Part shown: positions 36,551 through 39,213 of the stretch, piece after piece
How the letters are laid out: each line of letters begins with the position of its first letter
Numbering within the stretch: position 1 is the stretch's first letter
Origin: an uncultured Candidatus Saccharibacteria bacterium
GTDB taxonomy: Bacteria; Patescibacteriota; Minisyncoccia; Spechtbacterales; HO2-43-30
Length of the DNA stretch: 57,487 nt
Assembly: GCA_964504205.1 (NCBI GenBank)
Contig: CAZDDE010000004.1
Location: 1-57,487 of the forward strand
Direction of reading: 5' to 3'
The notes under the pieces: generated by a model
What the model saw: only the letters and a program-made list of their open reading frames with translations
Told to the model about the DNA's origin: nothing
Databases searched by the model: none
Program-made: the position numbers and the translations under genes

Positions 36551-36601
36551 CAACTCACACCTTCCTTTCGCTCAGTTTACTTATATTATACATCAATAAA
36601 A

Positions 36602-36679
36602 CTATATGTCAAGATTTTGGACGCTTTTAACGTGCACTTGAATAAAACGCTTCCGCGGGGCGACTTCGGCGCCCATAAT
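36602..36679 (-). pseudogene. diverged duplicate of the gyrB 3' end (last 25 codons plus stop)
   Basis: Translates to [25 protein letters not shown], against [25 protein letters not shown] for the real gyrB end. 63/80 nt identical to 37254-37333. Confidence 0.75.
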
Positions 36680-36952
36680 TTAATAAGTCTTTGAAGTCCT
36701 ACGCTCAACATGAAATACATAAATAGTTTTTGTTCCGTCAATCAGCTCGTAGAAAATTCTGTAGGAACCCGCCCTCCGTCGCCAAACATTTTTCTCATTT
36801 TTCATTTTTTGGATATCGCCATAAAACGGATCAACTGACAGATCATCAAGTGTAGATAGAATACGCCCGCTATCTTTACGGGGTATTTTCTTAAGTTTCT
36901 TATAAATGTTCGAGTCAATTTGTAAAACCCAATTTTTGTTTAAGTTCGCCAA
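36680..36952 (-). CDS. RelE/ParE-family toxin
   Basis: C-terminal WRRRAGSYRIFYELIDGTKTIYVFHVERR pattern. Apparent TTG start overlapping the antitoxin end. Confidence 0.8.
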   Translation of the reverse strand: MANLNKNWVLQIDSNIYKKLKKIPRKDSGRILSTLDDLSVDPFYGDIQKMKNEKNVWRRRAGSYRIFYELIDGTKTIYVFHVERRTSKTY

Positions 36953-37151
36953 GGGTTAGGAAGTTACCTTTTGCCCTATTGAGCCGAGCTTTCTTCAAGA
37001 TTTCTTTCTGTGTTTTGGTGGGCTCAAACTCTTTCACTTTCTTCTTAGGGCTCCCGGGCATCCTAAGATTCTCGTATTCTCTGCGAGTTACAATGACCAA
37101 CTTTTCTCCTTTCGTGACGGTCTTTAGTATTGTTATATTTACATTTTGCAT
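36915..37151 (-). CDS. putative antitoxin (78 aa)
   Basis: Immediately upstream of and overlapping the toxin. C-terminal KGNFLTLGELKQKLG motif is like the other antitoxin in the window. Confidence 0.65.
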   Translation of the reverse strand: MQNVNITILKTVTKGEKLVIVTRREYENLRMPGSPKKKVKEFEPTKTQKEILKKARLNRAKGNFLTLGELKQKLGFTN

Positions 37152-37257
37152 ATTTCTATTGTACTTCTTGTTTAAAAAAAATCAACAACACGTGAGTGTT
37201 GCACTTCAGGGTTTAATGCGGGTTCGGTGTACTTCTTATATACTAGCATAAAACCAA

Positions 37258-39213
37258 CTATATGTCAAGATTTTGCACGGTTTTGGCGTGGGTTTGGATG
37301 AAGCGCTTGCGCGGCGCGACCTCACTGCCCATAAGAATATCGAAAATCTTATCGGCTTCTTTGACGTCTTCAACAGTCACCTGTTTGAGGGTGCGCACTG
37401 CTGGATTCATTGTTGTTTCCCAAAGCTCGCCCGGGTTCATTTCGCCAAGCCCTTTATAGCGCTGAATGTTGATTCCGGAGTCCTTACCTATTTTTGCAAG
37501 AACTGCCTCTTTACCCTCTTCAGAATAGGTATATTCAATACTTTTGCCATGCTGAATTTTATACAGCGGCGGCTGGGCGATATACAAATAGCCGCTTGCG
37601 ATAAGCTGGGGATAGTAGCGGTAGAATAAAGTCAGTAAAAGAGTTCTGATGTGCGAACCGTCAACGTCGGCGTCCGTAGCAATAATGATCCTGTGGTAGC
37701 GCAGTTTTAGAATATCAAACTCTTCGGCAATCGCGGCGCCAAGAGCGATAACTAATGCCCTGATCTCTTTGGAGGCAAGCATTTTATCGAGGCGAGCCCT
37801 CTCGACATTAAGAATCTTTCCGCGCAAAGGCAGAATCGCCTGAAATTTGCGGTCTCTGCCTTGTTTGCTCGAGCCTCCTGCACTGTCGCCCTCCACTATA
37901 AATAATTCTGTCTCTTCCGGATCGCGCGAAGAGCAATCCGCTAGTTTCCCCGGAAGAGTGAATCCTTCCAGCGCCCCTTTTCTAATAATAGTCTCGCGCG
38001 CCGCTTTGGCTGCTTTGCGCGCGCGGGCCGATAAAGTGCACTTGCCGATAATCTCTCGCGCATCCTGCGGATTTTTGTCTAAAAATTCCTGCAAGTACTC
38101 GCTAACTACTGCTTCCACCGCAGTCCGCGCTTCCGGATTGCCAAGCCGGGCTTTCGTCTGCCCTTCAAACTGCGGCTCGCGCAGCTTCACTGAGACTACA
38201 ACCGTAAGCCCTTCGCGCACATCATCACCGGTAAGCCCCTCGTCGTCCTTAATCAAGCTATTTTTCCTGCCGAAATCATTAAGCACGCGTGTCAGCGCGG
38301 TTCTAAACCCGGTGATATGCATCCCGCCCTCACGGGTGTAAATGTTATTGGCAAAGCCCATCTCCATGCCCTGAATGTCATCGGTATACTGAAGCGCAAC
38401 ATCAACTTGAATGCCGTCATGCTCCTTGCTTGCGTAAAAAATATTCTGATGTTTAGGTTCTTCATCGCGGTTAAGATAGTCAACAAACGAGGGAATTCCT
38501 CCCTCAAAATAAAGCTGATAACTTTTGTGCGGCCCTGCCTGTCCGGTAGGCAGGTCTGCGCGCTCATCAACGATTTTTATCCTGATCTTACCGGTAAGAT
38601 AGGCTTGCTGGCGAAGGTGATCCAAAATAGTCTTCCAGTTGAAACTTATTTCCTTAAAAACTTCGATGTCTGGCTCGAAAGTAACAGAAGTTCCGGTGGT
38701 GCCGGCAGGACATTTTCCCACCTTGCGCACATCTTTTTTTGGCTTCCCCCGCTCGTACTCCTGCGCGTAAAGATTACCATCCCGGCAAACTTCCGCTTTA
38801 AGATATTTGGATAAAGCATTTACCACCGACACGCCCACGCCATGCAAGCCCCCCGTAATCTTATACCCTCCTCCCTCGCCAAATTTTCCTCCGGCATGAA
38901 GCATGGTCATCACTGTTTCAAGAGTAGATTTCTTTGTCTGCGGATGCTTTTCAACCGGAATTCCCCGACCATTGTCGGTAACATTAACTTGGTTATTCGG
39001 CAAAAGAGTTATCATTATTTCATTTGCATAACCCGCCATCGCTTCGTCTAAACTATTATCCGTAACTTCAAAAATCATGTGATGGAGTCCTTCCGGCCCG
39101 GTGGAGCCAATAAACATCCCCGGCCTCTTCCGCACCGGCTCCAGCCCCTCCAGAACCTGAATGTCTTTAGCGGTGTAGCTTGCAGATTTGGATTGTTGTT
39201 GCGCTTTAGCCAT
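37258..39213 (-). CDS. gyrB: DNA gyrase subunit B
   Basis: GHKL ATPase motifs ([17 protein letters not shown]), Toprim ([16 protein letters not shown]), QRYKGLGEM. Confidence 0.96.

Follow-up and report, generated by a model that had tools for sequence, protein, structure and literature searches.

Organization of the gyrB-secE region

A 57-kb stretch of DNA (contig CAZDDE010000004.1, positions 1 to 57,487), referred to here as the window, was found to carry on its minus strand a complete gyrB gene followed by a toxin-antitoxin (TA) pair of the RelE type and by a second, diverged copy of the gyrB 3' end (Table 1). The starts of the two gyrB-end copies were separated by 656 nt, with the TA pair alone between the copies. 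Equivalent duplications of the gyrB end, with varied cargo, were found in related genomes. With moderate confidence, this arrangement is interpreted as an insertion with long target duplication, followed by exchange between lineages through homologous recombination.

The nearest GyrB relatives were found among metagenome-assembled genomes (MAGs) of Candidatus Spechtbacteria-like Parcubacteria, with 77% amino acid identity; no closer relative was present in the genome-contig or metagenome-contig collections. The gene order pheT-gyrB-secE-nusG was conserved, with pheT upstream of gyrB in 100 compared loci and nusG downstream in 85 unique ones (loci from other genomes are designated by L-numbers). 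An earlier note on this DNA had placed gyrB, the antitoxin, the toxin and the second gyrB end, and all of these coordinates were confirmed.

Table 1. Features of the gyrB-secE region, in order of transcription
Feature	Position	Strand	Basis or remark
gyrB, complete, 651 aa	37258..39213	minus	ORF; Pfam HATPase_c, DNA_gyraseB, Toprim, DNA_gyraseB_C
Repeat copy 1: last 25 gyrB codons, stop and ~23 nt beyond	37235..37334	minus	alignment
20-nt identical core CAAAATCTTGACATATAGTT, copy 1	37256..37275	minus	alignment
Copy 1 promoter-like site TTGACA-17-TAGTAT	37268->37240	minus	10/12 consensus match
Intrinsic-terminator-like hairpin and T-run, between gyrB and TA pair	37177..37202	minus	motif
Weak promoter-like site TTGATT-16-TACAAT, directly before antitoxin ATG	37158..37185	minus	consensus match only
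Antitoxin, 78 aa	36915..37151	minus	ORF; overlaps toxin ORF; no Pfam/NCBIfam family
RelE/ParE-superfamily toxin, RelE-like, 90 aa	36680..36952	minus	PF05016 ParE_toxin, E=7e-7
Repeat copy 2: pseudo gyrB 3' end, starting 1 nt past toxin stop	36580..36678	minus	alignment, tblastn
20-nt identical core CAAAATCTTGACATATAGTT, copy 2	36600..36619	minus	alignment
Copy 2 promoter-like site TTGACA-16-TATAAT	36612->36585	minus	perfect sigma-70-type, 12/12 consensus match
221-aa ORF, between copy 2 and secE	35888..36553	minus	ORF; no Pfam/NCBIfam family
Terminator hairpin (35841-35875) overlapping third promoter-like site TTGACT-17-TATCAT (35842->35814)	35814..35875	minus	motif
secE (35581-35775) and nusG (34971-35549), native downstream neighbours of gyrB	34971..35775	minus	Pfam
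ORF, open reading frame.

The second gyrB end (25 codons and a stop, 36602-36679) matched the real end at 20 of 25 residues. Without gaps the repeat measured 88 nt (36591-36678 against 37247-37334), of which 68 were identical (77%); with one gap it reached about 100 nt and extended some 23 nt past the stop codon. The local alignment score was 52, whereas 1000 shuffles averaged 11.1 and never exceeded 19 (z=30), and tblastn gave E=1.5e-9. The duplication described in the earlier note, including its continuation beyond the stop, was thus upheld and lies well above background. Intragenic coding repeats aside, it was the sole dispersed direct repeat of the window. The longest identical run between the copies, CAAAATCTTGACATATAGTT, covered the Q-N-L-D-I codons, the stop and a -35 hexamer, and is likely to represent a crossover or conversion tract. 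Copy 2 contained an ATG 4 nt past the toxin stop and an intact reading frame of 24 codons (36602-36675). For annotation purposes, this short gyrB-like fragment is better treated as a promoter-carrying pseudo-end than as a gene.

Both copies contained a promoter-like site and that of copy 2 was a perfect consensus, so that the downstream genes would keep a promoter. The terminator-like hairpin between gyrB and the TA pair belonged to a segment of 58 nt that had a direct repeat of 10 nt, AAGAAGTACA, on either side (37228-37237 and 37160-37169); any repeat of this kind arose in 166 of 20000 shuffles. Deleting one AAGAAGTACA together with the segment would leave the antitoxin ATG about 19 nt past the -10 box of the copy 1 promoter, and the small hairpin element may therefore be a later insertion. 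Five clustered substitutions in copy 2, from ACCCACGCC to GTGCACGTT, yielded an imperfect palindrome, TTCAAGTGCACGTTAA (36627-36642), immediately before the perfect promoter, either by chance or as a possible operator.

Between copy 2 and secE, the 221-aa ORF had no homologue in 160 related gyrB loci and was absent at this position in relatives. It is probably a second, older accessory insertion or cassette at the same hotspot, with predicted expression from the copy 2 promoter. The ORF had a terminator of its own. At the third promoter-like site, which this terminator overlapped, only CTTGAC of the gyrB end remained, followed by a conserved leader hairpin and secE. The order in the window was consequently gyrB end with promoter, TA pair, gyrB end with promoter, 221-aa ORF, remnant promoter and secE. 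No Rfam match was obtained in the 33-41 kb part of the window, nor in L002, L039, L089 and L150, and no tRNA was present in 30-45 kb; the idea that an RNA gene of either kind had been the target or the cargo was rejected.

The toxin-antitoxin pair

The toxin scored 30.1 bits against PF05016 (cut-off 23 bits). Its matches in the PDB were weak and all of RelE type (RelE, aRelE and RelE3), and several of its 308 homologues, most of them from Patescibacteria, carried the name RelE in their source records; an exact-protein look-up returned no record. The antitoxin and toxin ORFs were co-oriented and overlapped by 38 nt, with the antitoxin upstream, and a partner with 43-59% identity to this antitoxin was conserved upstream of the homologous toxins in loci L161-L170. 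The sequence features of a RelE/ParE type II TA system were thus present, namely a toxin matching the fold family and an adjacent, co-oriented antitoxin conserved as a pair. The cassette is predicted to encode a RelE-type type II TA module, a class in which the toxin cleaves mRNA in a ribosome-dependent manner and the antitoxin neutralises it. It resembles RelBE/ParDE systems in its 90-aa PF05016 toxin, encoded downstream of and overlapping a 78-aa antitoxin gene, and in its RelE-named homologues; it differs from them in that the antitoxin belongs to no curated family. The GC content of the TA region was 37%, as compared with 46-49% around it.

Another RelE/ParE-type pair (39606-40062, minus strand, GC 36%) was located between pheT and gyrB; its toxin (83 aa) matched PF05016 with E=3e-9, and its antitoxin measured 67 aa. 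The pheT-gyrB gap measured 890 nt in the window versus about 110-190 nt in the nearest relatives. Thus, gyrB is bracketed by two TA insertions. No direct repeats were found flanking the second pair.

The native junction and its recurrent expansion

The nearest relatives, L001, L081 and L003, had no TA pair and contained a single gyrB end each, with the promoter, the leader hairpin and secE directly after it. They represent empty sites: these three did not carry both gyrB-like segments. In L001 and L081, gyrB ended with ...CTTGACATNTAA and a TAA stop, and a TATAAT box, the leader hairpin and secE followed within about 65 nt. Because gyrB ends in CTTGACATNTAA in these loci, the -35 hexamer of the secE-operon promoter sits within the N-L-D-I codons of the gene. 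In L002, copy 2 (stop TAA) ran into the native downstream sequence and copy 1 (stop TAG) adjoined the inserted DNA.

A survey of 130 unique gyrB loci, each searched with its own gyrB end, revealed a second, co-oriented gyrB end 200-2600 nt downstream in 11 of them, including the window (~8%). These were the window and ten other Parcubacteria loci, namely L002/L082, L013, L018 (with two extra copies), L039, L046, L051, L075, L089 and L150. The 3' ends of about 520 other long ORFs from the same loci were tested likewise as a control, and matches to a coding 3' end were limited to MITE-like palindromic repeats (MITE, miniature inverted-repeat transposable element) in L014 and L052/L145, which were rejected as target duplications. 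These repeats, of the form …GTCATTCCCGCGAAAGCGGGAATCCAG…, were located in L014 (minus strand, ~4600-4900 in reverse-strand coordinates) and at L052:2250-3300, where the element lengthened the pheS frame by a 'VIPAKAGIQ…' tail.

The cargo of the duplicated loci was unrelated from one locus to the next and included selfish and defence genes. PIN-domain TA pairs were found in L013 and L018, the latter consisting of two cassettes and three gyrB ends. L046 encoded an NYN-domain protein, and L051 an unknown protein together with an in-frame fusion of a HAD hydrolase with the gyrB end. L089 carried an Eco57I-like methylase, a Tsp45I/DpnII-like nuclease and AbiU2. ORFs of unknown family were present in L075 (172 aa) and L150 (78 aa), and the short inserts of L002 and L039 contained no ORF. 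The 205-nt insert of L002/L082 (L002:6583-6786) had no Rfam match and was made up of four strong hairpins, among them two palindromes that were nearly the same, TACACAGGTC.GACCTGTGTA; an 81-84-nt repeat occurred three times in this locus.

Repeat lengths at these loci ranged from about 29 to 130 nt. In most loci other than the window, the right edge of the repeat lay at most a few nt from the gyrB stop, and within 4 nt of it in about eight of them. The cargo was always co-oriented with gyrB and tightly packed: outside the window, first ORFs began 3-28 nt past the gyrB stop and last ORFs often ended 1-14 nt before copy 2. The stop codon frequently differed between copies, being TAG or TGA upstream and TAA downstream. 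More generally, extra DNA was present at the gyrB-nusG junction in 49 of 85 loci, and a duplication was detectable in nine of these 49. L033, for example, contained another restriction-modification unit at this junction with no detectable repeat.

Divergence between the two copies

Eleven codons differed between the two copies of the window, seven of them by synonymous changes only and four with a changed residue. The Nei-Gojobori count gave 0.75 differences per synonymous site (pS) and 0.14 per non-synonymous site (pN), i.e. a pN/pS ratio of 0.19. The observed differences were tested against an explicit model of in-place decay, in which the real gyrB end accepts only synonymous changes and the copy decays neutrally. 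Under this model, about 62% of the differences are expected to be non-synonymous, and the window departed from it with P about 0.03. As the differences were mostly synonymous, a second functional gyrB allele is the likely source of one of the copies, as the earlier note had suggested, although this is not proven for the window alone. That note had described the differences as mostly synonymous or conservative, but not all of them are conservative: two of the four residue changes put Val in copy 2 at the T and the A of IQTHAK, a residue found at neither position in 137 related GyrB proteins. These two substitutions look like later decay, or selection for something new, the five clustered changes that yield the palindrome TTCAAGTGCACGTTAA being located there.

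Over 81 nt, copy 2 showed 20 mismatches with the window's own gyrB and 17-18 with L002/L001. A nearest-neighbour test against 138 gyrB ends indicated no donor, no lineage being clearly closer than the window's own gyrB (17-20 mismatches). In the real gyrB end, 16 of 23 codons ended in G or C, which placed it within the top 8% of gyrB windows; this composition was uninformative as to which end is native.

The signal was sharper in two other loci, where in-place neutral decay was rejected with P=1e-3 (L089) and P=5e-4 (L039). In L089, a 95-nt centre was 99% identical, and the 20-nt edges on both sides of it differed almost only synonymously. In L039, the left 30 nt were nearly identical and the right 54 nt differed at 11 positions, 10 of them synonymous. 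In L018, the duplication spanned the gyrB end, a diverged spacer and the opening five codons of the gene that follows, and the proteins sharing these five codons were otherwise unrelated. The mosaics of L089 and L039 suggest that alleles recombined homologously or underwent gene conversion. Such mosaics are expected if a repeat-flanked cassette enters another lineage and the end points of the exchange fall within the repeats; alternatively, they are expected from gene conversion homogenising the repeat centres. The window can be read in the same way, its left arm being diverged, its 20-nt core identical and the 23 nt past the stop semi-diverged. If a crossover took place in the core, the real gyrB end upstream of it would be native and the foreign-looking part would be the left arm of copy 2. 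The proposal that the element had supplied a replacement terminus to gyrB is accordingly at most marginal, since the long identity covers just the last five codons and the stop.

Related RelE cassettes at other targets

Loci containing homologues of the toxin (L161-L170) were compared, and several cassettes of this family were flanked by duplications of targets other than gyrB. In L163 and L162, the flanking repeat consisted of 36 nt of the ksgA 3' end. Insertion in ksgA (rsmA) in L163 (repeats at 3691-3726 and 4277-4312) provided KsgA with a new C-terminus, and the displaced original end, …EPNARPQNLSVEKIIEILLQ with its stop, was found after the toxin. The cassette of L167 was flanked by 29 nt of intergenic DNA. 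The downstream repeat began 4-6 nt past the toxin stop in L163 and L167, versus 1 nt in the window. L165 (3597-5381) and L166 (263-1472) contained arrays of TA cassettes (RelE, MNT/HEPN-like and HicB) separated by repeats of about 100-130 nt with 64-97% identity, an integron-like layout in a Patescibacteria-type contig. No flanking repeats were found in L161, L168 and L170. When the ends of the RelE cassettes of the window, L163, L167 and L165 were compared by eye, no shared motif emerged beyond a promoter-like site just before the antitoxin.

Mechanism of insertion

Restriction-modification complexes are known to undergo 'insertion with long target duplication' (Nobusato et al. 2000, Gene 259:99; Furuta, Abe & Kobayashi 2010, PMC2853133). 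These units are bounded by long target duplications of variable length, often over the 3' end of a gene, and have no mobility genes; most cases come from naturally competent bacteria and the mechanism is not established (PMC2853133; PMC3874152). With respect to the features considered by Furuta et al. in 2010, the repeat of the window was longer than 30 bp (88 ungapped, about 100 gapped) and its insert shorter than 20 kb. No mobility gene was found in the region scanned, which covered 27.4-49.3 kb (about 10 kb on each side, 22 kb in all), and single-copy relatives existed at 77% GyrB identity (L001, L081 and L003). The cargo was a TA pair and not a restriction-modification unit, the latter being present at the gyrB end of the sister locus L089.

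The window thus shares with these insertions a small selfish unit without a mobility gene, variable repeats above 30 bp and a single copy in the genome with the empty site. Overlap of the repeats with the 3' end of the upstream gene, an insert of lower GC content than its surroundings and a host thought to take up DNA naturally are further points of likeness. It differs from them by its RelE TA cargo and by its host, a member of the candidate phyla radiation (CPR). In addition, the empty site is known from relatives at the genus or family level but from no member of the species, the copies differ by 23% and bear the signature of two alleles, and one gene end has been hit repeatedly across many lineages. 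A literature search yielded no report of such insertions for TA cassettes, for CPR bacteria or for a recurrent hotspot at one gene end, and these three aspects are new here. On the whole, the window fits this type of insertion better than a lost integrase.

In the reading we favour, with moderate confidence as stated above, a RelE-type TA cassette would have inserted at the gyrB-secE junction of a Candidatus Spechtbacteria-like Parcubacteria genome. The insertion would have duplicated a target of about 100 bp, which runs from the last 25 codons of gyrB across the stop to the -10 box of the secE-operon promoter. The upstream copy would leave gyrB intact, and the downstream one would persist as a non-coding gyrB fragment, whose embedded perfect TTGACA-16-TATAAT may keep the downstream genes expressed and so make the insertion cheap for its host. 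The two copies would derive from different gyrB alleles. Homologous recombination or gene conversion may have carried the cassette and the inner halves of the repeats from one related lineage to another; the homology would have come from the conserved gyrB end, and the exchange would have been resolved in or near the 20-bp identical core. An element-encoded integrase would play no part in this process, and the TA pair may act as an addictive or defensive accessory module, of a kind for which this junction would be a recurrent hotspot throughout Parcubacteria.

In Campbell-type insertion-duplication, described for naturally transformable bacteria, a single homologous crossover leaves the insert flanked by a duplicated homologous segment. 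Such an integration would explain the spread of cassettes through the conserved gyrB end; it differs in needing a circular intermediate, not observed here, and the homology at hand is very short (the 20-nt core).

Several points weigh against the favoured reading. It leaves the origin of the first duplication without explanation, as do the published restriction-modification cases, and recombination through a 20-nt identical stretch is inefficient. Neither an empty site of the same species nor the donor allele was found, the closest relatives having only 77% GyrB identity; given such distant relatives, the native half of each repeat in the window is only inferred. The allele evidence of the window alone is modest (P about 0.03), and the core could be identical because the -35 hexamer and the NLDI codons are under selection, with no crossover involved. 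Lastly, repeat edges at stop codons and tight cargo ends would also suit a site-specific mechanism, and this regularity of the edges is explained neither by homologous recombination nor by random illegitimate joining.

In integrase-bearing genomic islands bounded by attL and attR, and in their derivatives without an integrase (cis-mobilizable elements, CIMEs), direct repeats of a gene 3' end flank foreign DNA. It was along these lines that the earlier note had interpreted the locus, as the footprint of an element integrated at an att site in the gyrB end. A tyrosine or serine integrase would have acted on an att core at the gyrB stop, the element, an island or prophage, carrying a gyrB-like arm; either everything except the TA pair would have been lost later, or an integrase-less cassette would have been mobilised in trans like a CIME. 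The likeness lies in the preservation of the gene and in an identical core, here 20 nt at the stop codon, with diverged arms on either side. Consistent with a preferred site are the right edges within 4 nt of the gyrB stop in about eight other loci, the stop codons often unlike between copies and the cargo ORFs closely adjoining the downstream copy. The absence of an integrase noted earlier held across the scanned region, where neither transposase nor tRNA was found either, and no recombinase was found among the scanned cargo ORFs of the other duplicated loci. Further evidence against this scenario comes from the variable repeat length and from the synonymous sites of gyrB ends, which vary freely among lineages, so that no DNA site conserved beyond coding need is evident. 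Some junctions also fell inside coding sequence (the HAD fusion of L051, the five codons of L018 and the KsgA C-terminus of L163), cargo was unrelated between loci, and the same TA family was flanked by duplicates of unrelated targets. Finally, two degenerate DNA patterns detected no gyrB-tail fragment on viral contigs and the toxin protein was likewise unmatched there. The att-site interpretation was not sustained by these data and is, in either variant, unlikely.

Alternatively, the duplication may have arisen purely in place, with no foreign allele: the genome's own ~100 bp would have been duplicated by template switching or repair, the copies would have diverged over a long time and selection on the promoter would have kept the core identical. 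The coincidence of the core with the -35 hexamer agrees with this scenario, as does the fact that the second copy was nearest to the own gyrB end in L046, L051, L013, L002 and L075 (1-7 mismatches). The two substitutions of copy 2 unseen in functional GyrBs also suggest that some decay followed insertion. Against it stand the pN/pS ratio of the window, the far stronger rejections in L039 and L089, and the distance of copy 2 from its own gyrB, which was no smaller than that from L002/L001. A purely local origin consequently seems rather improbable.

In a bolder reading, the Parcubacteria gyrB 3' end would be where a cassette system not yet described captures near-bare ORFs (TA, restriction-modification, Abi, NYN and others), co-oriented and in some cases arrayed. 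Insertion at the gyrB stop would regenerate both the gene end and the essential secE-nusG promoter, the agent would be either trans-acting or host recombination, and the responsible activity would be unrelated to integron integrases. We regard this reading as speculative and rather improbable.

Integron cassettes are compact, co-oriented, near-bare ORFs separated by repeats, sometimes arrayed, rich in TA systems and served by an upstream promoter. A dedicated, undescribed integron-like platform of CPR bacteria can be imagined on this model, in which promoterless cassettes reduced nearly to their ORF are captured at the gyrB stop by a trans-acting enzyme that uses the gyrB end as recombination site, and accumulate in arrays. 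The co-orientation of all cargo with gyrB and the tight spacing in the other loci are in line with it. So are the two-cassette array of L018, the two accessory units and three promoter copies of the window, and the same-family TA arrays of L165 and L166. However, the repeats copy the end of the target gene and differ between targets, in contrast to structured attC sites. No integron integrase (intI) was identified in the 22 kb scanned, nor any attI or attC, a search for attC structures not having been made. Moreover, only nine of the 49 expanded gyrB-nusG junctions showed the duplication, and compact genomes could reach tight junctions through deletion alone. We consider such a platform doubtful, and more so than the preceding readings.

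An origin in a diversity-generating retroelement was rejected, as the mismatches between copies involved all four bases and were not adenine-specific, and no reverse transcriptase was present nearby. An assembly artefact, with strain variants of the gyrB end wrongly joined, might be suspected because the source is apparently metagenome-assembled, the relatives are uncultured MAGs and the copies are alleles of one sequence; it is hardly credible given that 77% identity is too low for collapse or mis-joining in an assembly graph, that the junction between the TA pair and copy 2 is unique sequence and that the same layout was obtained in independent assemblies from many projects.

Other features of the window

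Two further regions were recorded apart from the gyrB locus. A gap of about 380 nt without a credible long ORF (34105-34483), between rplK and a dUTPase/dCMP-deaminase gene, contained nested inverted repeats (34112-34137/34357-34382 and 34143-34166/34220-34243), both 92% complementary. It had no Rfam or tRNA match and may encode a structured RNA or represent a palindromic element. At 19666-20280, within a 1090-aa ORF (17065-20337), coding repeats rich in proline, threonine and tyrosine were arranged in tandem with an irregular spacing of 33-87 nt.

Biological significance

How TA and restriction-modification units move without a transposase or integrase has been an open question since 2000, and the published cases are scattered single events. 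Here, a single conserved site, the gyrB end beside secE-nusG, received independent insertions in at least ten CPR lineages, and both cargo and repeat length varied among them. The TA pair itself is ordinary; the value lies in the hotspot, a natural series with a defined target sequence in which allelic mosaics record recombination and from which the mechanism of this unsolved form of gene movement may be approached. With the duplication, gyrB keeps its reading frame and the promoter within its last codons is retained as well, so that the essential neighbours are not broken. Streamlined CPR genomes can in this way gain defence or addiction genes beside essential genes that remain intact.

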